Source of the DNA: Gemmatimonadales bacterium
GTDB taxonomy: Bacteria; Gemmatimonadota; Gemmatimonadetes; Gemmatimonadales; GWC2-71-9
DNA: 64,000 nt
NCBI GenBank assembly: GCA_035693225.1
Contig: DASSGV010000086.1
Span: 1,335 to 65,334, forward strand
Reading direction: 5' to 3'
The position numbers were made by a program, and so were the translations under genes. Positions 995 through 62,036 of this stretch are shown one piece after another (positions within the stretch are counted from its first letter, which is position 1; every line of letters begins with the position of its first letter). The notes beneath the pieces are model-generated. The model searched no databases. It worked only from the letters and a program-made list of their open reading frames with translations, and was not told the DNA's origin.

Positions 995-1064
995 AGGAAT
1001 AGGCGCGTGAGGCGCATAGGGCGCGTGAGGCGCGTGGACGCAGAAGCTGGCGCGGGAGCAACCA

Positions 1065-1170
1065 CTGTCATCCCGAGCAGAGCGAGGGACCTGCCCCGGG
1101 GTCAGACGGGCATATGATGGCTGGTCCCGATCACCGCTGAGAAGGTCCCTCGCTCCGCTCGGGATGACAG
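1065..1170. repeat. MITE-like palindromic element, GTCATCCCGAG family (full copy)
   Basis: Termini ctgtcatcccgagcagagcgagggacc ... ggtccctcgctccgctcgggatgacag form terminal inverted repeats of ~27 nt around a ~50-nt core. It is flanked by word arrays 997-1040 (ggcgcgtgagg) and 1174-1235 (gctgatag). Confidence 0.85.
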
Positions 1171-1262
1171 CAAGCTGATAGCTGATAGCCGGTGGCTGAT
1201 AGCTCGCAGAGTGCTGATAGCTGATAGCTCGAAAATGATCAATAGCTGCCCAAGGAGCGAGC

Positions 1263-3641
1263 ATGCACACCCTCCTCCACGACCTGCGCTACGCCGTGCG
1301 CTCGCTGCTCAAGGCACCGGGGTTCACCGTGACTGCGGTGCTGACACTGGCGCTCGGCATCGGCGCCACCACGACGGTGTTCAGCGTGGTCGAAGGCGTG
1401 CTGCTGGCATCCCTCCCCTTCCCCCACGCCGACCGACTCGTCGACATCAAGCAGGTCCGCGCAAACAGCGGCGGAGGCGGGACAGCACCGTTCGGCTCCT
1501 ATCAGGTGTGGCAGACCGCCACTCGGAGCTTCGATGGCATCGCCGCATACAGCGGGAACAGCGCTGTCCTCACCGGCCGTGGCCCCGCGGAGCGGGTCAT
1601 GACGTGGAGCGCCACCTCGAGCTTCTTTAAGCTCCTCGGCACTCGACCCTACTTCGGTCGCCTGCTCACTGCCGATGACGACCGCACCGGGAGCGAACCG
1701 GTGGCGGTCCTGAGCCACACCTTCTGGATGTCCCATTTCGGCGGCGACCCGCACGCGATCGGTCGGTCGCTCACGCTCGACACGGTGAGCTACACCATCG
1801 TGGGAATCGCGCCCCCTGACTTTCAATACCCCGCCACGGCAGTGATCTGGTCCAATGTCGGCGCGTACCTGGCCGGCCCTGAAGGGGCACGTCGCGCCCA
1901 CCAGTGGGCCTTCTGGGTGGTCGCCCGCTTGCGCCCGTCGATCTCCCTTGCGCAGGCACAGACCGATCTTGACCTGGTCTCGCGCCAGGCGTGGGACCAG
2001 GCACCAGACCTGAACGGGGCACTGCCAGCCCTCAGTCCGCTGAAAGGCTACCTCGTCGGGCAGGTGCGGAGCGGGCTCCTCATCCTCCTCGGTGCGGTGG
2101 CGCTCCTCTTGCTGATCGCCTGCGCCAACGTGGCCAGCCTTCTCCTCTCTCGCGGCATCGCGCGTCAGCACGAGATGGCCATCCGCGTCGCACTGGGTGC
2201 GGGGCGGGCTCGCGTGGCGTTACTGGTGCTGGCCGAGTCGGCGGTGGTCGCGCTCACTGGAGGCGCCCTCGGGGTCCTTGGTGCGCTCTGGAGCGTGCCG
2301 GCCCTCGTGGCCCTTGCAGGGAGCCAACTCCCGGACATCGCCCACATCGGCGTCAATTTGCCTGTCCTGGCGATGGCGTGCGGTGCCACCCTGGCCGCCG
2401 GCATCCTCGCAGGCGTAGTACCGGCGATCCGTGCGACGCACCGACCGCCGGGTGCGGCGCTCAAGGCCCAGGGGGCCGGCACGACGGCGACGATGCGGAA
2501 TCGATCGGCGAGCGCACTCATCGTTGCACAGGTGGCATTGGCGTTGGTGCTGCTCGTCGGTGCCGGGCTTCTGACACGCAGCTTCCTGCGGCTGGTGGAT
2601 CTTGACCCCGGCTTTGCCGCAAGTCACGTGGTCGTGGCGACACTCGACCTCCCGACCACTCGATACGCCAATGCTGATCGGCGTCGAGTGTACGCGGCCG
2701 AAGCGCTGACCAGCATCGAGGCATTGCCGGGCGTCCTTGACGCGGCGATCGCATCGGGGATCCCGCTCGACGGCGGCGCCATCAGCGGCGTTTCGATCCC
2801 GGGCAGGTCAGAATCGCAGGACCTGCCGTGGGCCTGGTCTGCGGCAGTTTCACCCAACTATTTCCACACCCTGGGCATACCTGTCCTGCGGGGGAATACG
2901 GCGGGTGGTCCGCACACCGTGGTCATCGACGAGGCGGCAGCGCGCGCATACTTTCCCGGTGACGATCCGATCGGGAAGGAGATCAGCTTCTACGGCACGA
3001 GATCAGCGATCATCACCGGCGTGGTCGGCGACACCCGCCAGGAGTCGCTGGCCGAAGCGCCGCCGCCCCACATCTACGAGTCGCTCGACAACGACCCTCC
3101 GGAGTACGTCAAGGCGCTGGTGCGCACCTCCGGAGACCCGGCAGCACTCGTCCGGCCATTGCACGATGCGCTCCAGGCGATCGACCACGATGCGCCCATT
3201 GACCGGGCCGGGCCTCTGTCCGATCGGATCGGTGCCGCGCTCGCCACCGAGCGGCTCTACACCTTGATGCTCGGGCTCTTTGCCGCCGCGGCACTCGCCC
3301 TGGCGGCCACGGGCCTCTACGGTATCGCTGCGCATTCAGTCGCCCAGCGGACCCGCGAGATCGGCATTCGCCGGGCCCTCGGTGCGGAACGCCGGAATGT
3401 GCTGGCGCTGATCATCGGGCGCGGATTGTCGCTCGTAATGGTGGGCCTCACGCTCGGGCTCGCCGGAGCCGTCGTCGGCACCCGTGTCCTCAAGAGTTTC
3501 CTCTTCCAGGTCCAGCCCCTCGATCCGATGGTCATCGGCCTGGTCGGGGTCGCCCTGGCCGCCACCGCCCTCCTCGCCAGCTACCTCCCCGCCCGCCGGG
3601 CGACGAAAGTGGATCCGATGGTGGCGCTGCGGGCGGAATAG
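1263..3641 (+). CDS. ADOP-family (acidobacterial duplicated orphan permease, TIGR03434-like) MacB/FtsX permease
   Basis: 792-aa ORF with the family N-terminus MHTLLHDLRYAVRSLLKAPGFTVTAVLTLALGIGATT and two FtsX-like TM modules. It ends in the same tail as the upstream paralogue. AAGGAG lies 5 nt before the ATG. No ATPase gene is adjacent. Confidence 0.9.
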   Translation: MHTLLHDLRYAVRSLLKAPGFTVTAVLTLALGIGATTTVFSVVEGVLLASLPFPHADRLVDIKQVRANSGGGGTAPFGSYQVWQTATRSFDGIAAYSGNSAVLTGRGPAERVMTWSATSSFFKLLGTRPYFGRLLTADDDRTGSEPVAVLSHTFWMSHFGGDPHAIGRSLTLDTVSYTIVGIAPPDFQYPATAVIWSNVGAYLAGPEGARRAHQWAFWVVARLRPSISLAQAQTDLDLVSRQAWDQAPDLNGALPALSPLKGYLVGQVRSGLLILLGAVALLLLIACANVASLLLSRGIARQHEMAIRVALGAGRARVALLVLAESAVVALTGGALGVLGALWSVPALVALAGSQLPDIAHIGVNLPVLAMACGATLAAGILAGVVPAIRATHRPPGAALKAQGAGTTATMRNRSASALIVAQVALALVLLVGAGLLTRSFLRLVDLDPGFAASHVVVATLDLPTTRYANADRRRVYAAEALTSIEALPGVLDAAIASGIPLDGGAISGVSIPGRSESQDLPWAWSAAVSPNYFHTLGIPVLRGNTAGGPHTVVIDEAAARAYFPGDDPIGKEISFYGTRSAIITGVVGDTRQESLAEAPPPHIYESLDNDPPEYVKALVRTSGDPAALVRPLHDALQAIDHDAPIDRAGPLSDRIGAALATERLYTLMLGLFAAAALALAATGLYGIAAHSVAQRTREIGIRRALGAERRNVLALIIGRGLSLVMVGLTLGLAGAVVGTRVLKSFLFQVQPLDPMVIGLVGVALAATALLASYLPARRATKVDPMVALRAE

Positions 3642-3690
3642 GCGGTAAGGCGGGCGAAGCTGAAGCATCGGAGTTTCGTGTCAAGCAGAT

Positions 3691-3825
3691 CTGTCATCCC
3701 GACCCCGAGCGTAGTCAGAGGGAGGGACCTTGCCGGCGGAGTCTAGAACCTCTATGCCGACCCCGATCGCCGCGGAGAAGGTCCCTCGGGTCTGCGCCTT
3801 CGGCGCAGTTCCCTCGGGACGACAG
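3691..3825. repeat. MITE-like palindromic element, GTCATCCCGA family (variant copy)
   Basis: Termini ctgtcatcccgaccccgagcgtagtcagagggagggacc ... ggtccctcgggtctgcgccttcggcgcagttccctcgggacgacag. It is followed at 3890-3927 by the pyrimidine word array cttcttacttcttacctctcacttcttacc. Confidence 0.8.
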
Positions 3826-3928
3826 ATCGAAATGCGCCGGTCCCTCTTCCCCGCTGCGCCGCTACGCCGCTGACCCGCCCCCTAACACCCCTTCTTACTT
3901 CTTACCTCTCACTTCTTACCTTTCTCCC

Positions 3929-6711: not shown

Positions 6712-6732
6712 CCGAAGTCGGGATGATGTGAA

Positions 6733-6927
6733 GGGGTGGCCGCAGGCCACCCCCTACGGACGTTGTCCCAGGCGTTTGTACGACGAGAATGGGCGGGCGC
6801 CTCGAACATTGTCGGTAGGGGGTGGCCTGCGGCCACCCCTGGCGCACGGAATGTCACAACCAACGGAACCTTGTCGCGGGAGCGCAGCGACCGACGGACC
6901 CCGGGGTGGCCGCAGGCCACCCCCTAC
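6733..6927. repeat. three REP/BIME-like palindromic units in alternating orientation
   Basis: ggggtggccgcaggccaccccctac at 6733-6757 and 6903-6927, with the inverted copy gtagggggtggcctgcggccacccc at 6815-6839. The stem is ggggtggcc/ggccacccc. They lie between the convergent kinase and TonB-receptor genes. Confidence 0.85.
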
Positions 6928-17671: not shown

Positions 17672-19006
17672 ATGAACGCCACACCCGGCACCTCGATCAC
17701 CTTCGGGCTCGTTTCGGTCGTCGGGTTGGTCCTCGGCAACGCCTTCTTCGTGGCGGCGGAATTCGCCCTCGTCGGGCTCCGCCGCTCCCGGATCGAGGAG
17801 CTCGCCCAGCGCGGGGTGAGCTCCGCGATCCTCGCCCGCCGGGCGGTCTCCTCCCTCGACCGCTACATCTCCGCCACCCAGCTCGGCATCACTCTCGCCT
17901 CACTCGGCCTCGGCTGGGTCGGCGAGCCGGCGCTCGCGTCGCTCATCGGCGGATGGTTCACCGGCCTCCCCGCCGGATTCCAATCCTGGGCCACCCATAC
18001 GGTCGCGGCTGCGTTCGCCTTCGCCCTCATCACGGTGCTCCACATCGTGCTGGGCGAGCTGGTCCCCAAGGCGCTCGCGATCACCTTCCCTGAACGCGTC
18101 AGCGCCTTCACCATCCGGCCGCTCACCGCCTTTCTCTGGGCCATGACCGGCCCCATCACCATCCTCAATGGGGCCGCCGGCGGGATCCTCCGGCTCCTGG
18201 GCGTGCGCCGTCGCACCAGCCAGGCCTCCCTGCATTCGCCCACCGAGCTCCGCATCCTGGTCGAACAGAGCCAGCAGGCAGGAAGCCTGGGGAGCGAGGA
18301 CGCGCGGCTCCTCGAGGGGGTGTTCGAATTCAGCGAGAAGAACGCCGAGCAGGTGATGACGCCGCGCACCCAGATGACCGCCATCGAGGCCGGCTCGTCG
18401 GTCGAGGAGGCCGCCGGTGTCGTGGCCGCGGCGGGGCGTTCACGCTATCCGGTGTACGAGGGATCGCTCGATGACATCGTGGGCGTGGTGCATGCCAAGG
18501 CCATCCTCGCCGCACTGCGCGCGGGCCCGCACCAGCCGGTACGACAGGTCATGCGGCCGCCGCTCTTCGTGCCGGGAAGTCGGGAGGTGGAGGACGTCCT
18601 GACCGACATGAAGCGGGTCAAGTCCCATATGGCCGTGGTGCTCGACGAATACGGCGGGACCGCGGGGCTCGTCACGATGGAGGACCTGCTGGAGGAGATC
18701 GTCGGCCCCATCGAGGATGAATACGACCGGCCCGACCGGGTACCGGCGCCCGCGGACGGGTCGCTGGTCCTCGACGGTGCCCTGCCCATCGCCGAGGCGA
18801 ACGAACGGCTCGACTTGAGGCTCGACGACGCCGAATACACCACGCTGGGCGGATATCTCTTTGGCCAGCTCGGGCGACTCCCCGCCGTCGGCGATCGGGT
18901 GCGGGCGGGTGGCAGGGAATTCGAGATCGCCGAGATGGAGGGACGCCGGGTCAGGCGGGTGCGGGTGATGACGAAGGCGGCAGGCGAGAAGAAGAGTGAA
19001 GAGTGA
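17672..19006 (+). CDS. HlyC/CorC family transporter (DUF21 + CBS pair + CorC_HlyC)
   Basis: N-terminal TM region (FFVAAEFALVGLRRSRIEEL), a CBS pair, and a C-terminal CorC_HlyC domain. ATG 17672 follows the BNR stop. The ORF's upstream extension to 17462 overlaps the BNR gene. Confidence 0.88.
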   Translation: MNATPGTSITFGLVSVVGLVLGNAFFVAAEFALVGLRRSRIEELAQRGVSSAILARRAVSSLDRYISATQLGITLASLGLGWVGEPALASLIGGWFTGLPAGFQSWATHTVAAAFAFALITVLHIVLGELVPKALAITFPERVSAFTIRPLTAFLWAMTGPITILNGAAGGILRLLGVRRRTSQASLHSPTELRILVEQSQQAGSLGSEDARLLEGVFEFSEKNAEQVMTPRTQMTAIEAGSSVEEAAGVVAAAGRSRYPVYEGSLDDIVGVVHAKAILAALRAGPHQPVRQVMRPPLFVPGSREVEDVLTDMKRVKSHMAVVLDEYGGTAGLVTMEDLLEEIVGPIEDEYDRPDRVPAPADGSLVLDGALPIAEANERLDLRLDDAEYTTLGGYLFGQLGRLPAVGDRVRAGGREFEIAEMEGRRVRRVRVMTKAAGEKKSEE

Positions 19007-19053
19007 AGAGTGAAGAGTGAAGAGGGGGAGTGAAGAGAAAGCGTGAAGAGTGG
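18987..19053. repeat. left arm of inverted repeat (GTGAAGAG words) flanking a four-helix-bundle gene
   Basis: Sequence gagaagaagagtgaagagtgaagagtgaagagtgaagagggggagtgaagagaaagcgtgaagagtgg. It is colinear with the reverse complement of 19548-19625 and contains the corC stop codon. Confidence 0.85.
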
Positions 19054-19131: not shown

Positions 19132-19518
19132 ATGCGTGATCATACCAGCCTGAAAGCGTGGCAGTGCGCTCGTGCCGTAGCGTTCGGGGTGCTGCGCCTG
19201 GGACGTTCGCACTGGAAACCGTGGGCGGCAACACACTTCGACCAGGCGCTTCGAGCCTCGTTGTCGGTCCAGCTCAACATCGCCGAGGGTTATGCCTTCG
19301 GGGACGGACCCACATTCGTCCGTCATCTCCGGATCGCCTATGGCTCAGCGGTGGAGACGGGGGACATCCTCGTGTTGCTCAGGGATGCAGAGGTGGCAGA
19401 CATCGAGACCCTGGCGTCGCTGATCGATGCCAATGTCGAGGGCAAGGCGTGTTTGCTGGGATTGCTCCGACGGCGGAATGGCTGGCGCCCGGCCCAAGCC
19501 GGCACCCACCGATCGTGA
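19132..19518 (+). CDS. four-helix-bundle protein (PF05635 / TIGR02436, '23S rRNA intervening sequence protein', Avd-like)
   Basis: 128 aa with a diverged family pattern: L.AWQ.A......L......W......Q.LRAS.SV..NIAEGY......F...L.IAYGS..E. Confidence 0.8.
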   Translation: MRDHTSLKAWQCARAVAFGVLRLGRSHWKPWAATHFDQALRASLSVQLNIAEGYAFGDGPTFVRHLRIAYGSAVETGDILVLLRDAEVADIETLASLIDANVEGKACLLGLLRRRNGWRPAQAGTHRS

Positions 19519-19547: not shown

Positions 19548-19625
19548 CCCTCCCCTTTTCACTCTTCACTTCTCCTCTTCACTCCCCCTCTTCACTTTTC
19601 ACTCTTCACTTGTCACTTCTCCCCC
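19548..19625. repeat. right arm of inverted repeat (CTCTTCAC words)
   Basis: Sequence ccctccccttttcactcttcacttctcctcttcactccccctcttcacttttcactcttcacttgtcacttctccccc. It contains the last codons and the stop of pdxA on the minus strand. Confidence 0.85.
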
Positions 19626-31095: not shown

Positions 31096-31446
31096 ATGCC
31101 CGACCCACTCCCTGATTTCAACGCCTTCCGCTCCCGGATGAACGAGCGGATCTTCGGCGCCGACAACCTTGTCATCAACCGATTCTTCCGACTCGACGGC
31201 CAGGCCTACGAGGACGGCGCGCTCGGCCGGAAGACCAAGGAGATGCTCGGTCTCGTCTCCTCGATGGTGCTGCGCTGCGACGACTGCATCACCTATCACA
31301 TCATCCAGTGCGCGGCCGAGGGCGTGAGCGACGAGGAGTTCTTCGAGGTCTTTTCCGTGGCGCTCGTGGTCGGTGGGAGCATCGTGATCCCGCACCTGCG
31401 GCGCGCAGTCGATCGGTTGGACGAGGTGCGGAGAGCGGGCGGGTAG
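31096..31446 (+). CDS. carboxymuconolactone decarboxylase (AhpD-like) family protein
   Basis: 116 aa with the AhpD-type motif [10 protein letters not shown] and a CMD-fold helix pattern. Confidence 0.82.
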
Positions 31447-31533
31447 GACGGGTCGAGCGGGTCTGGGACGATCGAACAGGTGCCACGATCCACCCGCCGC
31501 ACCCGTTTCACCCGCCCTACCCGCTCCACCCGC
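31425..31533. repeat. short inverted word arrays (GCGGGT / ACCCGC words) around a ~23-nt loop
   Basis: Left arm gcggagagcgggcgggtaggacgggtcgagcgggtctggg. Right arm cacccgccgcacccgtttcacccgccctacccgctccacccgc. The CMD-gene stop TAG (31444-31446) lies inside the left arm. Confidence 0.7.
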
Positions 31534-31547
31534 TTATCTTCCCCGCC

Positions 31548-33350: not shown

Positions 33351-33440
33351 GCGCAGGGGCGGAGAGACGCAGGGGCGGAGAGGCGGGTGGACGCAGTAAG
33401 GCGCGTGGACAGGCGCGTGAGGCGCGAGGGTGGAGCGGAG

Positions 33441-33509
33441 CGTCATCCCGAGCAGAGCGAGGGATCTTCTCCGCAGAGAGAGGACCGTCCCACCACGCTG
33501 GGATGACAG
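33441..33509. repeat. MITE-like palindromic element, GTCATCCCGAG family (short copy)
   Basis: Termini cgtcatcccgagcagagcgagggatcttctcc ... ccacgctgggatgacag. It is preceded (33352-33440) by purine word arrays gcaggggcggagag / ggcgcgtgg. Confidence 0.75.
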
Positions 33510-33548
33510 ATCGGTGGACGATCCGCCTGGCCACGAAAGGCGACATGC

Positions 33549-39565: not shown

Positions 39566-39593
39566 CCGCAGGGGCGCAGGGACGCAGGGGCGG

Positions 39594-40859
39594 ATGGGCG
39601 CACGGGCGGACGGGCGCACCAGCGGACGGGCGCGGGGGCGCAGGGGGCTCGGCTTGCTGGTCGGGTTCATCCTGGCGACCGCCTCCGTCGCTGCGCCGCT
39701 CTGCCTCTCCGCCCAGGGCACCATCCAGCAACGGATGCAGGACTCCCAGAAACGCCTCCAGCAGATCCGGGCGGAGCGGGAGCGCCTCCAGCAGCAGCGT
39801 TCCGCGCTCCAGGGTCAGGCGCACGACGTCGAGTCGGAACTCGTCAACATCACCCGCCAGCGGGACGCCACCAACCGCATCGTCAACGAACTCGACCGCC
39901 AGATCGGCGGCCTCAACCAGGAACTTGACCAGGTGAGCGGGAGCCTGGCACTGGCGCAGGACAACCTGGCCGACAAGCGCGCCGTGCTCTACCGGCGCCT
40001 GGTGGACATCTACAAACGCGGACCACTCTACGACTTCCAGGCACTCCTCGCCGCGGAATCCTTCGGCGACCTGGTGAGCCGGTTCAAGTACCTGTACCTG
40101 GGCAGTCGGCAGGATCGGCAGCTGGTGTCCGACGTCGAAGGGCTGCGTGACCGCGTCAATCGCCAGCGCGACGACCTGCTCAACTACCGCGCCAGCCTGA
40201 CCCGCTCACGGGAGGAACGGGACCAGGAGCTCCAGCACTACGGCGACCTGGCCGATGACCAGCGCTCCCGGCTCCGGGACGTACGACGCGACACCCGCAG
40301 CACCGAGACCCGGCTCACGGCGCTCCAGCAGGACGAGGAGGCGCTCAACACCCTCATCGCCACGCTGGAACGCGCCCGGCGCGAGGCCGCGGCCCGCGCC
40401 GCCGCCGCCCGGGCCTCCGGCCGCCGGGTGGCCCCCCCTGCGTCATCGATCACCACCGCCAGCATCGGGAAGCTGGGCTGGCCGATGGACGGCACGGTCC
40501 TCTACGGCTTCGGCACCGACGCCCTCAATTCCGGCGCGGTCATCAAGCACAACGGCATCGCGATCGCCGCGCCACCCGGCACCCCGGTCAAGGCGGTCGA
40601 GGCCGGCACGGTCGAGCTGGTCCAGCCGCTGGGCACCTACGGTCTCTCGGTCGTGCTGAGCCACGGTGGCGGCTACTATTCGATCTACTCCCAGCTCTCG
40701 ACGTCCTCGGTCACCAAGGGACAGACGGTCGTCCGGGGCCAGATGATCGGCACCTCCGGCGGCGCCAACACCGACGAGGGCCCCCACCTCTACTTCGAGA
40801 TCCGCGGCGAGAACGGTGTCGCACTCGACCCGACCGAATGGCTCCAGCGAAGAAAGTGA
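39594..40859 (+). CDS. M23/LytM-domain murein hydrolase activator (EnvC-like)
   Basis: Coiled-coil N-half, then an M23 domain (GWPMDG, HNGIAIAAPPGTPVKAVEAGTV, GLSVVLSHGGGYYSIYSQL, PHLYFEIR). The start is ambiguous (ATG 39558, ATG 39594 or later) because the 5' end runs through a G-rich word array. Confidence 0.85.
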   Translation: MGARADGRTSGRARGRRGLGLLVGFILATASVAAPLCLSAQGTIQQRMQDSQKRLQQIRAERERLQQQRSALQGQAHDVESELVNITRQRDATNRIVNELDRQIGGLNQELDQVSGSLALAQDNLADKRAVLYRRLVDIYKRGPLYDFQALLAAESFGDLVSRFKYLYLGSRQDRQLVSDVEGLRDRVNRQRDDLLNYRASLTRSREERDQELQHYGDLADDQRSRLRDVRRDTRSTETRLTALQQDEEALNTLIATLERARREAAARAAAARASGRRVAPPASSITTASIGKLGWPMDGTVLYGFGTDALNSGAVIKHNGIAIAAPPGTPVKAVEAGTVELVQPLGTYGLSVVLSHGGGYYSIYSQLSTSSVTKGQTVVRGQMIGTSGGANTDEGPHLYFEIRGENGVALDPTEWLQRRK

Positions 40860-41716
40860 CCACGGGCGAACTCCTCGGCGCCCACGTATCCACCGCCGGC
40901 GGGCCCCAGACGGCGCCGCCGCGTGGCGTCGACATCGGCGCCACCGCCATCCAGCTCTTCACCAAGACCCCGAACCAGTGGCGGGAACCGGTCCTCTCCG
41001 ACGAGACGATCGCCGCTTGGCGGAAGGCGTGGACGGAGAGCGGGCTCGGTGTGGCGGTGTCCCACGACAGCTACCTGATCAACCTCGCGTCCCCCGACGC
41101 GGCGCTGCGCAAGCGATCGATCGCCTCCTTCACCGCGGAACTCACCCGCTGCACCCAGCTCGGCATCCCGTACGTGGTGTCCCACCCCGGCAACTTCATG
41201 GACGACCGAGACCAGGGGCTCACCCGGAACGCCGCGGCGTACGCCGAGTGCCTCGAGTCGGTGCCAGGACCGGTGATGGTGCTGATGGAGACCACCGCCG
41301 GCACCGGCACCGCCCTCGGCAGCACCTTCGAGGAACTGGCGGAGCTCCGGGCCCGGATGCCCAAGGCGGTCCAGGCGCGGGTCGGGTACTGTGCCGATAC
41401 CTGTCACATCTACGCCGCGGGATACGACCTCGTCGGCGACTACGACGGCGTCTGGGAACGCTTCGACCGGAGCTGCGGGCTCGAACGGCTCCGCTGCCTC
41501 CACCTGAACGACTCCAAGACGCCGTTCAACTCCCATCGTGACCGGCACGGACTGATCGCGGAGGGATCGCTGGGGGCCGAACCCTTCCGCCGCATCATGA
41601 ACGACCCGCGGATGACCGGCGTGGCCAAGATCCTGGAGACCCCGAAGAGCGAGGATATGGTGACCAACGACCGGAAGATGCTGGCAAGACTGCGGGGGTA
41701 CGTCGGGAAGAAGTGA
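40838..41716 (+). CDS. nfo: endonuclease IV (AP endonuclease family 2)
   Basis: LGAHVS..GG, HDSYLINLAS, VSHPG, ETTAG and CADTCH motifs. It overlaps the preceding gene by 22 nt. Confidence 0.92.
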   Translation: MAPAKKVTTGELLGAHVSTAGGPQTAPPRGVDIGATAIQLFTKTPNQWREPVLSDETIAAWRKAWTESGLGVAVSHDSYLINLASPDAALRKRSIASFTAELTRCTQLGIPYVVSHPGNFMDDRDQGLTRNAAAYAECLESVPGPVMVLMETTAGTGTALGSTFEELAELRARMPKAVQARVGYCADTCHIYAAGYDLVGDYDGVWERFDRSCGLERLRCLHLNDSKTPFNSHRDRHGLIAEGSLGAEPFRRIMNDPRMTGVAKILETPKSEDMVTNDRKMLARLRGYVGKK

Positions 41717-41935
41717 GAAGTAAGAAGTAAGAAGTGAGAAGGAAGAAGTGAGAGGGGAGAGGTAAGAAGTGAGAAGTGAGAAGGGATAGTGAAGGGTGAA
41801 AAGTGAAGAGTGAAGGGTAGTGACGAGTGAAGAGCGAAGAGTAAGAAGCGAGGAGCCCAGGTTTTCGCCGCCCGCTTGTCCCTTCTTACTTCTCACTCTT
41901 AACTCGTCACTTCTCCCCCCCTCCCCCTTCCCCGA
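41714..41935. repeat. purine word array (GTGAGAAG/GTAAGAAG/GTGAAGAG) ending in a hairpin with its pyrimidine complement
   Basis: gtgacgagtgaagagcgaagagtaagaag (left) versus cttcttacttctcactcttaactcgtcac (right) shows 4 mismatches in 29 by hand. The loop is about 30 nt. The nfo stop TGA is the first word. Confidence 0.8.
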
Positions 41936-47220: not shown

Positions 47221-47227
<7 letters not shown>

Positions 47228-47390
47228 ACGGTCGCGTAACTGATCGCGTGAAAGAACGCGTAACTGATCGCGTGGACGGCCGCGTGAGAGTCGTGTAACT
47301 GATCGCGTAAGAGAACGCGTAACAGAACGCGTGAAAAGCCGCGTGACTGATCGGGTGAAGAGCCGCGTGACTGATCGCGTGGACGGCTGC
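47221..47390. repeat. left arm of inverted repeat (CGCGTAAC/TGATCGCG/TGA.. words)
   Basis: Sequence cgcgtgaacggtcgcgtaactgatcgcgtgaaagaacgcgtaactgatcgcgtggacgg... The pckA stop lies in the first word. Confidence 0.85.
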
Positions 47391-47456: not shown

Positions 47457-47807
47457 ATGGACCCCTACGAGCGCTTCGACGCGTGGACGCGATCGCACGA
47501 ACTGGCCGTTGCGGTGCACCGCGCTACCCGGAACTGGCCGCCGGACGAACGCTTCGGGCTCGTTGCCCAGGTGCGCCGAGCGGCCTTTTCAGTCCCGGCC
47601 AATATCGTCGAGGGACGTGCCAGAAGGGGGCCCAAGGAATTCCGCCGGTTTCTCGACATCGCGTGGGCGTCGCTCGCCGAAGTCGGTTACACTCTGCGAT
47701 ACGCACACGATGTGGGTTACTTGACGCCTGAAGCACACGCCGAGCTCGAGCACGCACGGGCAAAGGCCGGCCGATCGCTCTACGCCCTGCTTCGCAATAT
47801 GAGTTGA
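47457..47807 (+). CDS. four-helix-bundle protein (PF05635 / TIGR02436, Avd / 23S rRNA IVS protein family)
   Basis: MDPYERFDAWTRSHELAVAVHRATRNWPPDERFGLVAQVRRAAFSVPANIVEGRARRGPKEFRRFLDIAWASLAEVGYTLRYAHDVGYL is a close match to the family consensus. Confidence 0.9.
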   Translation: MDPYERFDAWTRSHELAVAVHRATRNWPPDERFGLVAQVRRAAFSVPANIVEGRARRGPKEFRRFLDIAWASLAEVGYTLRYAHDVGYLTPEAHAELEHARAKAGRSLYALLRNMS

Positions 47808-47813: not shown

Positions 47814-47928
47814 CGCGGTCAGTTACGCGATCACTCACGCGATCATTCACGCGGTCAGTTACGCGATTATGTACGCGGTCAGTTACGCGATCACCCACGC
47901 GATCAGTTACGCGCCATTTCACCCGATC
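47814..47928. repeat. right arm of inverted repeat (CGCGATCAGTTACGCG words)
   Basis: Sequence gcgcggtcagttacgcgatcactcacgcgatcattcacgcggtcagttacgcg..., the reverse complement of the left-arm words. It ends within ~10 nt of the HD-gene ATG. Confidence 0.85.
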
Positions 47929-49223: not shown

Positions 49224-49255
49224 ATGAGAAGAGGAGGCGAAGAGAGGAGGAGAAG

Positions 49256-49286
49256 AACGGGGCTCCGAGCTGATTCGGGGCCCCGT
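49256..49286 (+). terminator. terminator-type hairpin H1 (family AACGGGGCTCCG-loop-CGGGGCCCCGT)
   Basis: aacggggctccgagctgattcggggccccgt lies 33 nt after the HD-gene stop. The stem is better on plus-strand RNA (G-U pair rather than a C-A mismatch). Confidence 0.55.
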
Positions 49287-51877: not shown

Positions 51878-51896
51878 GGTATGCGTCAGCCGGGCC

Positions 51897-52664: not shown

Positions 52665-52697
52665 AAACCGGGCTCCGAAGAATTCGGAGCCCCGTTT
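52665..52697 (-). terminator. terminator-type hairpin H3 (same family)
   Basis: aaaccgggctccgaagaattcggagccccgttt lies downstream of the orphan antitoxin gene on the minus strand. Confidence 0.5.
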
Positions 52698-52794
52698 CAT
52701 TCACATTACTCCCAGCCCAGGTGCCTGGCCTGATACCAAGAAAAAGCCTCCGCGACGTCCGCGAAGGCCTCGTTCCGAAAGCGGATCGCGACAG

Positions 52795-53013: not shown

Positions 53014-53072
53014 AGGATTATCTGCGGGTTCCGCGCCCCTGGGGCAAGCGCCGATAGCGGATAGACCGCCCG

Positions 53073-53729
53073 CTACTTCGCCAAACGATACAGGTAGTTG
53101 CGCTGAGCGACCGGCCCGATGCCAGGGATGTCGGTCCGCCGGATGAACGTGACCAGCTTCTTGCTCGAGTCATCAACGCTGTCCTTCACCCAGAACCCGA
53201 CCCGTTTCCCGTCGACCAATCCGACCACCCGATAGGAATTCGCCGCCGCATTGACCTCCACTTCAAATTGCTCCCCCGCCCTCCAGGGGTGAGCGATGCT
53301 GGTGTCGGGCTCGGAACCGAGCGCATTCACCTTGACGTCGAGGTCATAGGAAACCGCGGGGCCGTGGTTCTCGGCGTACCACAGGATCGTGTCCGCCTGG
53401 CCGATGTGGACCCGGTTCGAGTCCACGAGCCGGCACGCAGCCTCCGGCCTGCAGTGCAGGATGCTGTCGCTGACAACGGCGACCATCTCGGACTGGGGCA
53501 GCGGAAAGGCGCTGATGGTGACATTCGGATGGGCGGCCGTTCCGCCCCGGAGCCGCACCTGCGTCGAGCCCGACGAGGGGTGCCATTGGCCGGCCGGGAC
53601 CGTGTAGGTGGTGATGAGCTGCCAACTGTTGTCCGACCCCGCGGCCGGCACGATCGGCTCCCGAGCGCATCCCCCGAGGAGGAGGCTCACACAGGCGGCA
53701 CCGATGGCGTTACCAGACTTGACGGGCAC
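53073..53729 (-). CDS. hypothetical lipoprotein (218 aa)
   Basis: GTG 53729 is preceded by AGAGG. Lipobox SLLLGGC. The rest has no recognisable motif. The ORF extension to 53927 covers the pyrimidine-rich leader. Confidence 0.55.
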   Translation of the reverse strand: MPVKSGNAIGAACVSLLLGGCAREPIVPAAGSDNSWQLITTYTVPAGQWHPSSGSTQVRLRGGTAAHPNVTISAFPLPQSEMVAVVSDSILHCRPEAACRLVDSNRVHIGQADTILWYAENHGPAVSYDLDVKVNALGSEPDTSIAHPWRAGEQFEVEVNAAANSYRVVGLVDGKRVGFWVKDSVDDSSKKLVTFIRRTDIPGIGPVAQRNYLYRLAK

Positions 53730-53996
53730 AAGACCTCTAGCAGGAGACAAGAGAAAAGGGAGAACGCAGATCGGGAAAGCTGCGGAAACAGGGAAACGAA
53801 GAGGGCCCTTGGTCAACCCGGCCCCTTTGAGCGAGCTTACCTGCAAACCAGACCAAGGCCAACACCGCTCCCCAAGTCTATCTGCGCCGGCCCGCCTGAC
53901 GGGGAAGCTTACGGCAGTCCTTAGCAATCAATCATGTCCCGCGCCGCCGCGCCTCCGCCCGGTCAGCAGCAAGCGCGCGTTAGATGGCCGCCCTTG

Positions 53997-55490: not shown

Positions 55491-55502
55491 GTTAGAGCCA
55501 TG

Positions 55503-55922
55503 TCAAGACAAGCCAGATGGCGAATCCTTCGCGATGTGCGCCTCATAGCCAGCCACCACGGCGTCATAGACCAAGTCCGCGGATTCAGGAGCTGGGCGAT
55601 TGACAGCAAGGCAAGCATCCCTGATCCCATCTACTTGCATCCTGGCCGCAAACTTCCCTGGGTACCCATCGACGTTGTAGAGGCGCTGCCGAAACATCGT
55701 CATGGTGGATGTCATCACGACATTGGCCAACTTCGGGTCCTTCTTGTTGCGCATGTAGATGAACATGTCTACAAGGTACCACGCCACTTTATCGGCATCG
55801 TCGAAGCTCAGGCCATCCTCGATGTAGGCCGCCCGGATTGCCGAATGAATACGCCTCATCCGTGTCGTATTGAAAAGGAAGAGCGCGCCTGCGCCGAGTG
55901 CCAGCAGCAATATCCAACTCAT
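55503..55922 (-). CDS. hypothetical N-terminally anchored membrane protein (139 aa)
   Basis: ATG 55922, MSWILLLALGAGALFLF. It lies 13 nt upstream of the hydrolase gene. The 99-aa upstream extension of the ORF crosses repeat/leader sequence. Confidence 0.5.
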   Translation of the reverse strand: MSWILLLALGAGALFLFNTTRMRRIHSAIRAAYIEDGLSFDDADKVAWYLVDMFIYMRNKKDPKLANVVMTSTMTMFRQRLYNVDGYPGKFAARMQVDGIRDACLAVNRPAPESADLVYDAVVAGYEAHIAKDSPSGLS

Positions 55923-56136
55923 GATGGGCGGCTCTCCTATGGTCGGCGTACGCCTAACCAGTATTGGATCACAGTCCTGCTGGATACTGTACCGCCCCCG
56001 CAAGTTGCGCCAGTACAGGGGTGACGTGAGCAAACAATGGAGTCTCTCAAATGCGTTAGGCACCTCGTCCACGACCGGAGCTGCGTTTTCTCCTGTCTCT
56101 TTTCTCTCTCTTCTCCTCGCCTCATCCCCAAAAGCC

Positions 56137-56169
56137 AACGGGGCCCCGTCCACCACCGGAGCCCCGTTT
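56137..56169 (-). terminator. terminator-type hairpin H4 (inverted copy of H1)
   Basis: aacggggccccgtccaccaccggagccccgttt. Its reverse complement matches the H1 arms. The stem is better on minus-strand RNA. It lies 40 nt after the PP2C stop. Confidence 0.55.
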
Positions 56170-56208
56170 ACTTTCCCTCGCCTTCCCCCGCTTTCCTCCG
56201 CTTTCCCC

Positions 56209-56937
56209 TCACTCCTCAATCCTCACCACGATCGCCGTGATGTTGTCGAGCCCGCCGCGCCGGTTGGCGTCGGTGATGAGCGCATCGACCCATTCCTGTG
56301 GCCCGCCGGGTGAGGAGAGGATCTTCTGCAGGTGCTCGTCCTCCAGCATCCCGGTGAGGCCGTCGGAGGCGAGGAGGAGGACGTCTCCGGCGCGGAGGGC
56401 GCCGAAGTAGAGGTCGGGAAGCACGTCGGCGTTGGCGCCGACGCAGCGGGTGATGACGTTGCTGTAGGGGTGGACCCGCGCCTGTTCCGGCGTCAGCAAC
56501 CCGGCATCTACCTGTTCCTGCACGTAGGAGTGGTCCTTGGTGACCTGGAGCAGCTGACCATCCCGCAGCAGGTACGCTCGACTATCTCCCACCTGCCCCA
56601 TCAGGTACCGCCCCGCCAGGAGGACCAGCGAGGTGGCGGTGGTGCCCATCCCGCGCTTGTCGTGCTCGGTGAGGGTGCGCTCGAAGATGGCGGCGTTGGC
56701 GGCGCGGATGGCACCGCGCATCCGCTCGCCGACCTCTTCGTCGGTCAGGCCGCGGAGGGCGCCGAGCTCCTTGGCGATCGTGTTGACCGCCATCTCGCTG
56801 GCGACTTCGCCGGCGGCGTGGCCCCCCATCCCGTCGGCCACGATGAAGACGCCGCGATCGTCCTGCATGAGGTAGTTGTCCTCATTGCCGGAGCGGACGA
56901 TGCCGACGTCAGTGCGGGCCGCGCAGGAGAAGCGCAC
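56209..56937 (-). CDS. PP2C-family Ser/Thr protein phosphatase
   Basis: RTDVGIVRSGNEDN, VADGMGGHAAGEVAS, LLASDGL, DNITAIVV. GTG 56937 lies 5 nt after the FHA-gene stop. The ORF extension to 57402 is inside the FHA gene. Confidence 0.9.
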   Translation of the reverse strand: MRFSCAARTDVGIVRSGNEDNYLMQDDRGVFIVADGMGGHAAGEVASEMAVNTIAKELGALRGLTDEEVGERMRGAIRAANAAIFERTLTEHDKRGMGTTATSLVLLAGRYLMGQVGDSRAYLLRDGQLLQVTKDHSYVQEQVDAGLLTPEQARVHPYSNVITRCVGANADVLPDLYFGALRAGDVLLLASDGLTGMLEDEHLQKILSSPGGPQEWVDALITDANRRGGLDNITAIVVRIEE

Positions 56938-60338: not shown

Positions 60339-61417
60339 GTGGCGCCCACCGCCGCGGTCCCGTCGGCATCGATGCTGCGGAGGCCCTGCCGGACCCAGTT
60401 GGAGAAGACCAGGAACCCGAAGGCCAGCGTGTAGTAGCTGAGTGTCAGGCGCCAGAGCAGCGTGTAGAGCGGGAGCGAGGTGCGCGGCACGTATCCCGCC
60501 GCCATCACCGCCGCGGAGAGGAGCTCGGCGATCCCAGACCCGCCGGGCGTCGGCGCGAAGTAGAGCAGAAATGTGATGAGCGTCTGCAGCAGGAGCACGT
60601 CGACGAAGTTGGCTTCGACCCCGATGGCCCGGAGCGCCACATACCCGGCCAGGAGCTTGTTGGCGTGGGAGGGCGCCGAGAGGAGCGTGGCCCACAGGAG
60701 CGAGACCCACCCACGCGGAGTGTTGAACCGGAGCAGGCTCGTGTGGGCCTCATCGATGCCGGCGCCCAGGCGATCCAGCCGCTCGGCCACCCGCGGGTGC
60801 CGGCGTCCGGCCCAGCGGGTGAGCCGATGGATGATGTCCCGGGCGACCCCCGGGAACACCATCACGGCGACCATCACCACTCCGAGCCCCGCGAAGATCC
60901 CGAGGCTGCCGAGGAAGAGGTCGTAGAGCGAAAGGCCGAGGACGTCGCCCTGGGTGCCGAGGGCCTTGCCGGCGCCGAGGACGATGGCGAGCGGGCCCGC
61001 GATGGCAAAGAACGCGACCGTGGCGACGAAGGTCATCAGCGTCGAGGTCATCGCGACCGGGACCGGGACGCCGCTGCGCTTCATCGTGTAGATCATCATC
61101 GGTCCCGCACCCGACTGGACCGGCGTCAGGTACGCGGCCCAGGCGCTCATCCCCCCCGCCAGGATCATTCCGCTGAGCGGCGGCTCCGGATGCACCTGGC
61201 GGGTCACCACCCAGAGCCGGAGTCCCCCGCCGATCCAGTCCATCGACGCCAGACAGAGGCCGATGAACACCCACACCCAATGGACCTGCCCCACCGAGGC
61301 GAGGAAGGCGGGGAGGTTGTTCCCGTAGAGGAGCACCGCGCCGAATCCCGCGAGGGAGATGACGGCGAAGAGTTCGAACCCGCGGCGGAGGAGGGTGGGT
61401 GAAAGGGTTCTGGACAT
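60335..61417 (-). CDS. flippase-like membrane protein (LPG_synthase_TM / UPF0104 family, PF03706-like)
   Basis: Polytopic protein with PTPGGSGIAEL, the family's P-x-GG-x-G-x-E motif. ATG 61417 (MSRTLSPTLLRRGFELF); a TTG at 61456 is possible. Confidence 0.8.
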   Translation of the reverse strand: MSRTLSPTLLRRGFELFAVISLAGFGAVLLYGNNLPAFLASVGQVHWVWVFIGLCLASMDWIGGGLRLWVVTRQVHPEPPLSGMILAGGMSAWAAYLTPVQSGAGPMMIYTMKRSGVPVPVAMTSTLMTFVATVAFFAIAGPLAIVLGAGKALGTQGDVLGLSLYDLFLGSLGIFAGLGVVMVAVMVFPGVARDIIHRLTRWAGRRHPRVAERLDRLGAGIDEAHTSLLRFNTPRGWVSLLWATLLSAPSHANKLLAGYVALRAIGVEANFVDVLLLQTLITFLLYFAPTPGGSGIAELLSAAVMAAGYVPRTSLPLYTLLWRLTLSYYTLAFGFLVFSNWVRQGLRSIDADGTAAVGAT

Positions 61418-61456
61418 GTCGGGCGAAACGTACCGGGAGGGAGCGGGGCGGGTCAA

Positions 61457-62036
61457 CGAGTGGTGAGTGGTGAGTGGCGAGAGGCGAGTGGCGAGTGGTG
61501 AGTGGCGGGTGGCGGGTGGCGGGTGACGAGGGGTAAGGCGTGCGCCAATGAACTGTCATCCCGACCCCGAGCGGCGCGAGGGGGAGGGGCCTTCTCCGCT
61601 GGCCCTCGAACTGGACGACAGTGATTAGTGCGAGTGGCGAGTGGCGAGAGGCGAGGGGTAGGGGGTGCACCAATGAACTGTCATCCCGACCCCGAGCAGC
61701 GCGAGGGGGAGGGACCTTCTCCACTGGCCCCCGAACTGGGCGACAGTGATTAGTGCGAGTGGCGAGAGGCGAGAGGCGAGTGGCGAGGGGCGAGGGGTAG
61801 GGAGTGCGCCAATGAACTGTCATCCCGACCCCGAGTAGCGCGAGGGGGAGGGACCTTCTCCGCTGGCCCCGGATCGGGCGGCACCGGTCCGATGTTGACG
61901 GACAAGGTCCCTCGGTCGGCGCTGCCTCCCTCGGGATGACAGCACATTGTAAGCACGGCCCCCGCGACTCACGCCCACGACCCACTCACCACTAACCACT
62001 CTCCACTCGCCACTCGCCACCAACCACCCGCCACCC
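61457..62036. repeat. composite repeat: GCGAGTGG/GCGGGTGG word arrays + 3 tandem MITE-like half units + closing MITE end + complementary CCACTCGC word array
   Basis: ccaatgaactgtcatcccgaccccgag recurs at 61545, 61670 and 61809 (periods 125 and 139). The closing end ggtccctcggtcggcgctgcctccctcgggatgacag finishes at 61942. The right array 61966-62036 is made of the reverse complements of the left-array words. Confidence 0.85.

Follow-up and report, generated by a model that had tools for sequence, protein, structure and literature searches.

The window analysed here, a stretch of 64,000 nucleotides from a Gemmatimonadales bacterium, contains numerous tandem arrays of short degenerate words at the ends of its genes and in the spacers between them. 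With period 7–13, at least 3 copies and a score of at least 40, 21 such arrays were identified; dinucleotide-preserving shuffles (n = 30) had a mean of 0.17 and a maximum of 1. Confident coding sequence accounts for 84% of the window (intergenic sequence, 16%), and 18 of the 21 arrays are located outside it, so that coding repeats could be rejected as an explanation. By TRF, arrays were present at essentially all coordinates quoted in an initial annotation made from the letters alone, but they are not restricted to the periods of 7–8 nt given there, as periods of 9, 10 and 12 were found too. CRISPR arrays were also rejected, since the units are contiguous and 7–12 nt long, rather than direct repeats of 24–48 nt with unique spacers of similar length, and so was an assembly artefact, as assemblies made independently, together with finished genomes or plasmids (Xanthomonas, Gemmatirosa, Nostoc), show the same build. 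At the gathering threshold Rfam gave no family at any array, one tRNA being the sole match in the window.

Coordinates below refer to the + strand, except for array K (- strand) and the separately listed MITE-like elements (no strand assigned). Array A1 (997..1040), purine-rich and of GGCGCGTGAGG type, lies directly 3' of the stop of the first ADOP (FtsX/MacB) gene. It is followed by a MITE-like palindromic element TGTCATCCCGA...TCGGGATGACA (1065..1170) and by A2 (1173..1235), a sense-oriented GCTGATAG array located 27 nt upstream of the second ADOP gene and not complementary to A1. The stop of this second gene coincides with a short purine-rich arm, B1 (GGCGGTAAGGCGGGCGAAG; 3641..3665); the loop of pair B holds another MITE-like TGTCATCCCGA element (3691..3826), and the pyrimidine-rich arrays B2/B3 (CCGCTACG and CTTCTTAC; 3851..3925), of which B3 is the complement of the word of H, end 3 nt before the start of a sigma-54 activator gene. 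Pair C (14447-14660), between a divergent cation-efflux gene (-) and a BNR/sortilin gene (+), has (AGCTATC)x8 as its left hairpin arm (C1, 14447..14504) and (CTGATAG)x14 as its right arm (C2, 14561..14660). In pair D, the purine-rich arm D1 ((GTGAAGA)x9; 18987..19053) spans the corC stop codon and the codons for the final CorC residues, the pyrimidine-rich arm D2 ((TCTTCAC)n; 19555..19618) holds the pdxA stop codon (- strand), and the loop carries a gene, IVP1 (19132..19518), for a four-helix-bundle protein of 128 residues (TIGR02436/PF05635). Pair E consists of a purine-rich GCGGGT-type arm of period 9 at the stop of the CMD gene (E1, 31425..31467) and a pyrimidine-rich ACCCGC-type arm (E2, 31489..31534) that ends 13 nt before the lepA start.

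The purine-rich F1 (33352..33430), made up of two copies of CGCAGGGGCGGAGAGA followed by GGCGCGTG-type words, is located 3' of the lepA stop, with a degenerate MITE-like GTCATCCCGAGC...GGGATGACAG element 3' of it (33441..33511). Array G ((CGCAGGGG/CGGACGGG)x10; 39566..39650) follows directly on the ftsX stop and overlaps the uncertain start of an M23 peptidase gene. About 20 heptamers (GTGAGAA/GTAAGAA/GTGAAGA) form H1 (41709..41850), which holds the nfo stop; its complementary pyrimidine-rich arm H2 (CTTCTTAC TTCTCAC...; 41875..41915) escaped both TRF and the initial annotation. The pckA stop lies in I1 (47221..47390), a 12-mer array (CGCGTAACTGAT/CGCGTGAAAAGC x13), while the complementary 12-mer arm I2 (47814..47928) ends 8 nt before the HD gene start; the loop between them contains IVP2 (47457..47807), encoding a four-helix-bundle protein of 116 residues (TIGR02436/PF05635; PDB relative 2GSC). 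Downstream of the HD-gene stop lies the purine-only GAGAAGAGGAGG array J (49226..49256), followed by a small GC hairpin (~49258-49287), and the purine-rich arrays of K (56086..56225), 3' of the PP2C stop, are interleaved with two small GC hairpins. Finally, pair L (61457-62036) occupies the spacer between a divergent LPG-synthase gene (-) and uvrA (+): the purine-rich arm L1 ((GGCGAGT)x11; 61457..61535) lies 39 nt upstream of the former, and the pyrimidine-rich arm L2 ((CCACTCA/CCACTCG)n; 61975..62036) ends 19 nt before the start of the latter. The loop of this pair (61505..61941) comprises 2.8 copies of a 125-nt unit, itself half a MITE-like element plus a short GGCGAGT array, followed by a full-length MITE-like element (61818-61941).

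At least six word families can be distinguished within the 64 kb. The notion that each locus has its own word holds only in part, since several words recur at two or three loci each: GTGAAGA/GTAAGAA is found at D, H and B3, GCGCGTGA is common to A1, F and I, GCTGATAG to A2 and C, and CGCAGGGG to F and G.

Most arrays form two complementary arms, in which a purine-rich (R) arm is followed by a loop and by its pyrimidine-rich (Y) complement. When the two strands were folded to minimum free energy, stable stems were obtained with 32–96 inter-arm base pairs (C, 53; D, 54; E, 35; H, 32; I, 96; L, 51), with z-scores of -3 to -15 (C, -11.8; H, -7.3; L, -14.9), which are somewhat generous because mononucleotide rather than dinucleotide shuffles served as reference. 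No partner arm was detected for A2, F1, J and K, and that of G is weak. Among complementary array pairs from 17 Gemmatimonadota loci, 19 have the R-then-Y order, none the reverse and three are ambiguous; in the window, pair C is the only pair without it. The orientation rule is therefore purine-rich arm first and pyrimidine-rich arm second, on either strand, divergent promoters included. As the hairpin is symmetric, the purine-rich sense faces inward-reading genes on both sides. The initial view of arrays that are non-random, oriented and hairpin-forming is supported. The claim that the purine-rich sense always faces the 3' end of the adjacent gene is wrong, as pairs C and L lie between divergent genes.

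With respect to stop codons, most of what had been annotated was confirmed. For corC, pdxA, nfo, pckA, PP2C and the CMD and HD genes the stop falls within or at the first word, for lepA, ftsX and the two ADOP genes it comes immediately before that word, and the three ORFs quoted as reading through arrays do so. Stops are also strongly one-sided, H1 having 5, 7 and 5 in the three frames of the + strand versus none in any frame of the - strand, and I1 7, 8 and 2 versus none. Stops in all three frames occur in only about 8 of the 23 arms (none in G and J, a single frame in E1 and F1). The asymmetry, which some two thirds of the arms lack, is to be expected of any purine-rich word that contains T, since stop codons consist of T and purines and their complements are pyrimidine-rich; the stop codons of the purine-rich arms are a by-product of composition. 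In practice, they make the ORFs on either side terminate at the array border.

The loops are variable in content, and hold either a short loop sequence, a small GC hairpin, the palindromic TGTCATCCCGA element or a TIGR02436/PF05635 gene. The TGTCATCCCGA element behaves as a sequence family, with 14 matches versus 1.5 expected. Only two of about 12 loci carry an ORF, namely pairs D and I, and this IVP gene appears to have its own promoter. The encoded proteins score 53 bits (IVP1) and 102 bits (IVP2) against TIGR02436, IVP2 matches PF05635 with E=1e-29, and there are weak IVP matches to bAvd and DivGenRetAVD (Avd-like). TIGR02436/PF05635 is the family of the 23S-rRNA intervening-sequence proteins (IVPs), encoded by an ORF within 23S intervening sequences (IVS) that have heptamer stems (PMC4990558). 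A tblastn search with both IVPs against 80 pckA loci gave no further copies, and the association of IVP genes with arrays was therefore tested on a separate metagenome scan. Short loops do not appear to be remnants of an IVP gene, as they gave no tblastn signal. Both the inverted pairing of the arms and the presence of PF05635 genes inside two of the hairpins had gone unnoticed in the initial annotation.

At 62 metagenomic IVP loci, local alignment of the upstream flank with the reverse complement of the downstream flank gave a median score of 49.5, compared to 22 for alignments across loci (Mann-Whitney p=3e-26) and 20 for direct similarity within the same locus. After dereplication, arrays of period 8, 9 or 10 were found at 53–54 of 59 loci, the number of units in an arm having both its median and its mode at four, and the distance from the end of the purine-rich arm to the ATG of the IVP gene is 75 nt (IQR 67–79). 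The same build occurs in Xanthomonas (accB - (GGGAATC)x4 - IVP - complement x4 - accC), in an IVS of the Azospirillum 23S rRNA (arms GGACGGA/GGACAGA), and in Gemmatirosa, Picosynechococcus and Nostoc plasmids. Several elements reside inside probable operons: between accB and accC in Xanthomonas, between ftsX and the M23 peptidase gene in the window, and between cas10 and cmr3 and between cas6 and cas4 in cyanobacteria.

Close relatives do not keep the word of a locus. In orthologous nfo spacers the word is GTGAGAA in the window, GTGAACN in one relative (L164) and GTGAGAC in another (L166); the change affects both arms, while the right flank is conserved. Similarly, the window and L082 have the IVP cassette in the pckA-HD spacer, where L164 has a palindromic element and L166 a different set of arms. 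Words turn over rapidly, and both arms change together. The density of arrays among Gemmatimonadota loci ranges from 0 to 15 per 10 kb, and contigs of near-identical strains differ within an array and break there.

We favour, with moderate confidence, the explanation that foldback (hairpin) elements, built like the IVS of 23S rRNA but located in the spacers of protein-coding genes, have the word arrays as their arms. Such arrays would grow and shrink by replication slippage, which would be a reasonable source of the copy-number variation between relatives. The complementarity of the arms would be maintained by a process at the DNA level, for example ectopic conversion, or template switching from one arm of the quasi-palindrome to the other. 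Selection at the RNA level is the less likely cause, because the stems have no excess of sense-strand G-U wobble (74 sense-compatible versus 91 antisense-compatible transitions, and 221 transversions); the absence of this signature also fits a complete lack of RNA-level function. In a read-through transcript the arms would zip into a duplex of 30–100 bp, which, by extrapolation from the homologous rRNA IVS stems, would probably be cut by RNase III. The cistrons on either side would thereby be parted and the loop lost, and the tolerance of operons and rRNA towards such elements could be understood in this way. Other arm orders may not be tolerated: in the fixed order the C-rich, G-poor arm would be transcribed second and be paired at once, and would not be exposed as a putative loading site for Rho.

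The arrays could also be neutral or selfish DNA, i.e. slippage-prone simple-sequence repeats (SSRs) subject to quasi-palindrome correction, with no host role and with hairpins and an arm order that would merely be the least harmful in a spacer. To this possibility we assign clearly less than an even chance. It is in line with the turnover of word, copy number and cargo seen at about 91–93% protein identity between genomes, with the missing wobble signature, with the breaks and differences between near-identical strains, and with the uneven array density. Neutral slippage alone would, however, hardly produce the architecture that Gemmatimonadota have in common with Xanthomonas, cyanobacteria and rRNA IVSs: about four words per arm, the purine arm first, and an IVP gene 75 nt beyond it. 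This reading largely overlaps with that of IVS-like foldback elements, the sole difference being whether the RNA stem matters. More doubtful is the idea of mobile foldback cassettes, in which arms and cargo would move together and the IVP would recognise or help to make its word arrays. Among pairs of loci that share no flanking ORF, the arms are far more similar where the IVPs are at least 70% identical (median score 34–35 versus 16), and a 10-mer word of GGAGGTTGG type is common to groups of loci with full flanks and, again, no shared flanking ORF; such locus pairs are not phylogenetically independent, though, and their non-synteny is inferred from flanks of about 2.3 kb. Arm words of IVP loci recur at arrays without an IVP (GTGAAGA of D at H and B3, CGCGTGA of I at A1 and F), GCGCTGGG occurs twice in L083, GTGAGAC is present in L166 at two loci where the words of relatives differ, the pckA-HD spacers of close relatives differ in whether they hold the IVP cassette, and the IVP itself is Avd-like. 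Nevertheless, the differences between words in the nfo spacers (1–2 of 7 nt) resemble divergence in place, and the majority of hairpins have no IVP. There is no transposase, recombinase or reverse transcriptase nearby (no transposase domain in the flanking ORFs scanned), and no target-site duplication was seen, albeit with arrays that abut coding sequence. The IVP is a helical bundle of only 116–128 residues, for which we know of no catalytic motif.

The initial annotation mainly proposed all-frame translational stops combined with a hairpin terminator or insulator; bidirectional, factor-independent action of this kind is not supported as stated, and we consider it improbable. Eleven purine-rich arms do begin at or in a stop codon, the stems are long, and on either strand the 3' arm is pyrimidine-rich and would presumably leave a weak RNA:DNA hybrid. 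In addition, canonical hairpin-plus-U sites, with a short GC-rich stem and a 3–8-nt loop before the U tract, are not enriched in the 31–50 kb region (6 sites versus 6.7 expected) and none of them is at a gene end, so that something else must end transcripts there. None of these sites coincides with an array either, and the arrays have no U tracts, which makes a classical terminator role unlikely. Moreover, loops of 430–500 nt contain expressed-looking genes, elements are found between divergent genes (C, L) as well as inside probable operons, only a minority of arms contain all-frame stops, and each flanking gene already has a stop of its own. Least probable, in our opinion, is regulation of the neighbouring genes through G-quadruplexes or protein binding, of the kind suggested for the GGGAATC and TAACTGA repeats. 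The strand polarity matches that of G4-forming repeats in Xanthomonas and Nostoc (PMC4692102), four units per arm are the mode, some words have G runs (CGCAGGGG, GGCGAGT), and the GCTGATAG arrays are sense-oriented just upstream of three genes, like TAACTGA repeats. The four-unit mode is independent of word composition, though, and many words have no GG at all (GTGAAGA, GTAAGAA, GCTGATA, CGCGTGA) with an unchanged architecture, so that the four or more G tracts of a G4 are lacking; only G, F and L are rich in G tracts. The neighbouring genes are, furthermore, functionally unrelated.

If the interpretation as IVS-like foldback elements is extended, TIGR02436 IVPs and tandem-word arms might constitute a single ancient class of selfish hairpin cassettes across phyla, with ORF-less derivatives as the otherwise unexplained heptamer and 8–10-mer repeats of cyanobacteria, xanthomonads, Gemmatimonadota and others; we put this forward as speculation and consider it unlikely. 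In its strongest version the IVP would recognise its own word and take part in making or spreading the arrays, possibly by templated extension of two 3' ends at a break, which would give identical inverted words with the purine-rich strand always running towards the cargo. Three literatures, on the rRNA IVS with its S23p ORF, on heptamer excess and on strand-polar G-rich and TAACTGA repeats, have remained separate and their subjects unexplained for up to three decades. The loci of the window, together with those of Xanthomonas, cyanobacteria and Azospirillum, suggest that these are faces of one architecture. If so, the origin of the IVS and the function of a very widespread orphan protein family would become testable in culturable Xanthomonas (accB-accC) and Gemmatirosa. 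The arrays also have practical consequences: they break short-read assemblies (the loci L081, L082, L167 and L168 all end in or beside one), they shift annotated stops and starts (Nfo homologues range from 286 to 309 residues, and the M23 peptidase gene start is ambiguous), and their pyrimidine-rich strand gives rise to long spurious ORFs.

The initial annotation knew of no described element class with these properties, which proved incorrect: the strand polarity of heptamers (PMC4692102), all-frame stops (PMC4679880) and IVS heptamer stems (PMC4990558) have all been published. Strand-polar heptamers, all-frame stops and IVS hairpins are thus each known, while a description of the connection between them was not found; nor did we find literature linking PF05635/TIGR02436 genes to tandem-repeat arms, or reporting such repeats in Gemmatimonadetes. 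Long SSRs, with their excess of heptamers (Mrazek et al. 2007), and the STRR of Calothrix (Mazel et al. 1990), both as cited in PMC4692102, likewise consist of tandem 7-nt units in non-coding DNA. They are enriched in genomes that are large, GC-rich or cyanobacterial, and have been ascribed to polymerase slippage. Repeats of this kind have one or a few words per genome (STRR1-3; GGGAATC); in the 64 kb of the window there are at least six families, several of them present at two or three loci. The window shows the same enrichment of head-to-tail iterations of 5–11-nt units in non-coding DNA (21 versus 0.17 arrays, 18 of the 21 intergenic), but these descriptions, as summarised in the literature cited here, do not include inverted pairing, a fixed arm order or cargo.

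The GGGAATC and GGGGA(C/T)T repeats of Xanthomonas and Nostoc are intergenic tandem heptamers with a preference for four units, which vary in copy number and sequence between close relatives (Rehm et al. 2015, PMC4692102). Their G-rich strand is the coding strand just after stops and the non-coding strand just before starts, and the window arrays follow the same polarity within 50 nt of stops and starts, respectively. Rehm et al. explain these repeats by G4 formation and do not mention the IVP gene, which in Xanthomonas is flanked by GGGAATC repeats in inverted orientation, as in pairs D and I. A further difference is that those genomes have one dominant word, whereas the window has its six or more families, many of which cannot form G4. 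A single dominant word is also found in the TAACTGA direct repeats that occur in Beggiatoaceae, cyanobacteria and Bacteroidetes (MacGregor 2015, PMC4679880), mostly in 2–6 copies and with only one inverted pair reported, and a role in translational regulation was proposed. Like heptamers of the window they carry stops in all three frames when read one way and leave a frame open when read the other way (LSVISYQ in TAACTGA repeats, SYQLSAIS in the window), and both overlap ORF ends. Their forward orientation just upstream of starts is shared by the GCTGATAG arrays A2, C1 and C2, the only ones so placed in the window (at 11–96 nt). The arrays do not qualify as TAACTGA repeats, the nearest words being CTGATAG, with one mismatch to the rotated word, and GTAACTGAT within the 12-mer of array I.

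REP/BIME sequences and MITEs resemble the window elements in being intergenic, transcribed, hairpin-forming, often located at stop codons and tolerated in operons. They are, however, families of dispersed copies of one conserved sequence, whereas here the arms differ between loci, only the architecture is conserved, and the MITE-like TGTCATCCCGA element is merely cargo. Drosophila foldback (FB) transposons have long terminal inverted repeats composed of short tandem repeats, with a variable length and a variable centre; they are eukaryotic, transposase-dependent and produce target-site duplications. Their likeness to the window elements is one of build, and an analogy only.

In the Coxiella IVS, tandem GACAGAT heptamers that vary in number between strains form a stem of 28 bp, and cleavage of this stem by RNase III was demonstrated in vitro and mapped by RACE (PMC4990558). 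The window elements differ from the 23S IVS in lying between protein-coding genes instead of in helix 25 or 45 of 23S rRNA, in having arms that are often much longer (up to 170 nt), and in the lack of an ORF in most copies. They share with the IVS of Leptospira, Coxiella, Azospirillum and others the same ORF family in the loop and terminal inverted repeats that form a long stem, and with those of Coxiella and Azospirillum a stem of purine-rich tandem heptamers that vary in copy number, with the purine-rich arm on the 5' side.

The window has a G+C content of 68%, and the nearest relatives of its PckA are proteins of Gemmatimonadales MAGs (72% identity). A gene map was built from codon usage and the genes adjoining the arrays were checked with Pfam, which upheld the names initially assigned (ADOP-type FtsX/MacB permeases, corC, pdxA, CMD, lepA, ftsX, nfo, pckA, an HD-domain gene and PP2C). 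Essentially all tandem word arrays of the initial annotation were recovered by TRF at the same coordinates. Under fixed TRF criteria (period 7–13, at least 3 copies, score of at least 40), 21 arrays were identified in the window, compared to an average of 0.17, and never more than 1, in 30 dinucleotide-preserving shuffles. Eighteen of these are located outside confident coding sequence, i.e. in just 16% of the window; one of the three arrays inside coding sequence is a nearly perfect heptamer repeat (GCGACCC, 3.9 copies, 36232–36258) within a PfkB-family kinase gene. An imperfect hexamer/33-mer repeat (TCGTCC, 16 copies, 11226–11327) inside a small minus-strand ORF (11144–11422) is coding, would give an acidic D/E-rich tract, and has no connection with the intergenic arrays. 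Between convergent genes (6732–6925) there are three copies of GGGGTGGCCGCAGGCCACCCC, a perfect palindrome of REP type, which is also present in the lepA-GT9 spacer of L164, a contig of a relative (about 2480–2500).

Most arrays are paired: 25–500 nt beyond a purine-rich (R) array lies a second one, built from the complementary, pyrimidine-rich (Y) word. This arrangement was found in pairs B, D, E, H, I and L (array loci of the window are lettered A to L); the arms of pair C are complementary too, but compositionally neutral. In pair H, the partner arm (41875–41915) of the 'nfo-distal' array had been missed both by TRF and in the initial annotation. The two arms pair when either strand is folded to minimum free energy; on the plus strand, inter-arm base pairs number 53 in pair C (z −11.8), 54 in D (z −7.3), 35 in E (z −3.1), 32 in H (z −7.3), 96 in I (z −7.3) and 51 in L (z −14.9), the z-scores being somewhat generous as they refer to mononucleotide shuffles. 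The order of the arms is fixed: complementary array pairs in 17 Gemmatimonadota loci were R-then-Y in 19 cases and Y-then-R in none, with three ambiguous.

A hairpin reads alike on both strands, and the R-then-Y order therefore turns the purine-rich, stop-bearing sense to inward readers from either side, which explains the earlier impression that this sense always faces the 3' end of the adjacent gene. As a rule the latter does not hold, since two array pairs sit between divergent genes, i.e. pair C between a cation-efflux (−) and a BNR/sortilin gene (+), and pair L between LPG synthase (−) and uvrA (+). For eleven genes the stop codon is indeed part of the first word or immediately precedes it, and the three ORFs quoted as reading through arrays do so. 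Stops are one-sided where the word contains one (e.g. 5, 7 and 5 in the three plus frames of H1, an arm of pair H, and none on the minus strand), but the supposed stop in every frame occurs in just about 8 of 23 arms, with zero in G and J. Periods of 7 and 8 are both present, but so are 9, 10 and 12, and words are not strictly particular to one locus, as several are shared by two or three. What was described initially is genuine, albeit seen from a single side: the element is a hairpin rather than a stop array on one strand, and its stops are a by-product of composition that had previously been noted in print. No canonical terminators were predicted at the arrays in a scan of the window from 31 to 50 kb.

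The loops are short in pairs C, E and H, and those of pairs D and I each contain one small gene of family PF05635 (Pfam)/TIGR02436 (NCBIfam), named '23S rRNA intervening sequence protein' or 'four helix bundle protein' (here IVP), for which the closest solved structure is 2GSC (Xanthomonas XCC0516). At A, B, F and L the cargo is a palindromic element, TGTCATCCCGA...TCGGGATGACA, whose termini have 14 matches in the window versus 1.5 expected; at another locus (L083) this element again sits precisely between an R arm and the matching Y arm. In the loop of pair L (61505–61870) a 125-nt unit, consisting of half a TGTCATCCCGA element and a short GGCGAGT array, is repeated 2.8 times in tandem. At J and K, the R arrays are followed by small GC hairpins.

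The same architecture was found around IVP genes elsewhere. A metagenome scan with the IVP alignment yielded 80 loci, of which 62 had usable flanks and 59 remained after dereplication. Comparison of the upstream flank with the reverse complement of the downstream flank gave a median score of 49.5 for the 62 loci, versus 22 for cross-locus controls (p = 3e-26), while direct similarity of the flanks within a locus had a median of 20. In 53–54 of the 59 dereplicated loci, the IVP gene is preceded by an R array and followed by a Y array. The metagenomic arms have a period of 8, 9 or 10, a median of four copies and a length of about 37 nt, and 75 nt (IQR 67–79) separate the end of the R arm from the IVP ATG. 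The leaders (L084–L163, plus 19090–19131 and 47415–47456 in the window) share a weakly conserved AATGGTTA-like motif around −40 (−42 to −35) and TAnnnT around −10 (−12 to −7) from the ATG, suggesting that the IVP gene has its own internal promoter and a very short leader. Plasmids of Gemmatirosa, a cultured member of the Gemmatimonadetes (with GGGCAGGA arms), of Picosynechococcus and of Nostoc have the same build. In Xanthomonas, four GGGAATC-type heptamers come after the accB stop, followed by the IVP gene, four complement units and the accC start, and an Azospirillum plasmid has a genuine 23S rRNA intervening sequence (IVS) with GGACGGA/GGACAGA heptamer arms. IVP genes are also seen within intercistronic spacers of otherwise tight operons: cas10-cmr3 (L170, Picosynechococcus), cas6-cas4 (L172, a Pseudanabaena plasmid) and accB-accC (L178/L179, Xanthomonas).

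Relatives' contigs L164 and L166 are syntenic with the window from 31 to 50 kb (Nfo 93% and 91% identical, respectively), and L082 spans pckA and an IVP gene whose product is 89% identical to that of the window. In the spacer downstream of nfo, the words are GTGAGAA/GTAAGAA in the window, GTGAACN in L164 and GTGAGAC in L166; both arms have been altered together, with conservation of the CCCCGAACATCCCCCGGCACC stretch to the right of the Y arm. The pckA-HD spacer has 12-mer arms and an IVP gene in the window and in L082, other arrays and the palindromic element in L164, and GGTCGGAT arms with a small hairpin in L166. Behind the HD gene, the window and L164 have GAGGAGAAGA, and in L166 GTGAGAC is repeated eleven times without a mismatch and is accompanied by a Y arm. 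This reuse of the word of its nfo locus, together with the differing words of relatives, indicates that words are shared within a genome and are replaced between genomes. Among pairs of IVP loci that share no flanking ORF, some of which have full flanks, arm similarity has a median of 34–35 where the IVPs are at least 70% identical, versus 16. Complementarity of the arms could be held by selection on RNA pairing or by a process at the DNA level. Stem mismatches were examined for sense-strand G-U-compatible changes, and no excess of these was found (74 sense versus 91 antisense, with 221 transversions), which makes DNA-level upkeep the more likely of the two.

In the region 39566–39700, array G overlaps the possible start of an M23 (EnvC-like) peptidase gene; the counterpart of this array in L166 has just four units, followed by a clear ATG, with the Y partner inside the signal-peptide coding region. 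The start-codon annotation of this gene is unreliable. Nfo homologues at least 81% identical (window 40856–41716; P0121–P0136) vary from 286 to 309 aa; as the first array word contains the nfo stop, changes in the array alter the C-terminus, and nfo terminates in TAA in L168 (98% identity) and in TGA in the window. Short-read contigs of close relatives (L081, L082, L167 and L168) end inside or beside arrays. Assemblies break at the arrays, and metagenomic bins probably under-represent them. A stretch of about 7 kb (49300–56200) has a lower G+C content (59–65%) and mostly unassignable ORFs, with a beta-lactamase-family gene (53997–55490, minus strand). It is missing from L166, in which the HD gene is directly followed by PP2C, and in L164 its place is taken by MarR and CLC-channel genes; the stretch probably represents an insertion or a variable island.

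Beyond the observed anatomy, arm order, cargo, cross-phylum recurrence and concerted change of the arms, we propose that arrays lengthen and shorten through slippage, and that arms would be homogenised via quasi-palindrome template switching or ectopic conversion, both established mechanisms in E. coli. The fixed order may be due to the C-rich, G-poor arm being transcribed last and paired at once; given what is generally known of rut sites, this would possibly leave no exposed Rho loading site in either direction of transcription. Read-through RNA would form a long duplex to be cut by RNase III, by extension from homologous rRNA IVSs, for which such cleavage has been demonstrated (PMC4990558). 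Such cutting could explain why the elements are tolerated inside operons and rRNA.

The Coxiella IVS has tandem GACAGAT heptamers in variable number before its S23p ORF, and a 28-bp stem within which RNase III cleaves (PMC4990558). Rehm et al. (2015) described GGGAATC repeats with equal strand polarity, a preference for four units and variability, and accounted for them as G-quadruplexes (PMC4692102); MacGregor (2015) described TAACTGA repeats with all-frame stops and an open reverse frame (PMC4679880), and the Geobacter metallireducens genome paper reports families of four to five tandem heptamers. No link of heptamer-type repeats to PF05635 genes or IVS hairpins was found in the literature searched; as its coverage was incomplete, this negative result does not show that none has been described. 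The elements are most suitably classed as foldback elements of IVS type located in mRNA spacers, and what merits pursuit is that IVS elements, IVP genes and the heptamer repeats of bacteria appear to form a unity.
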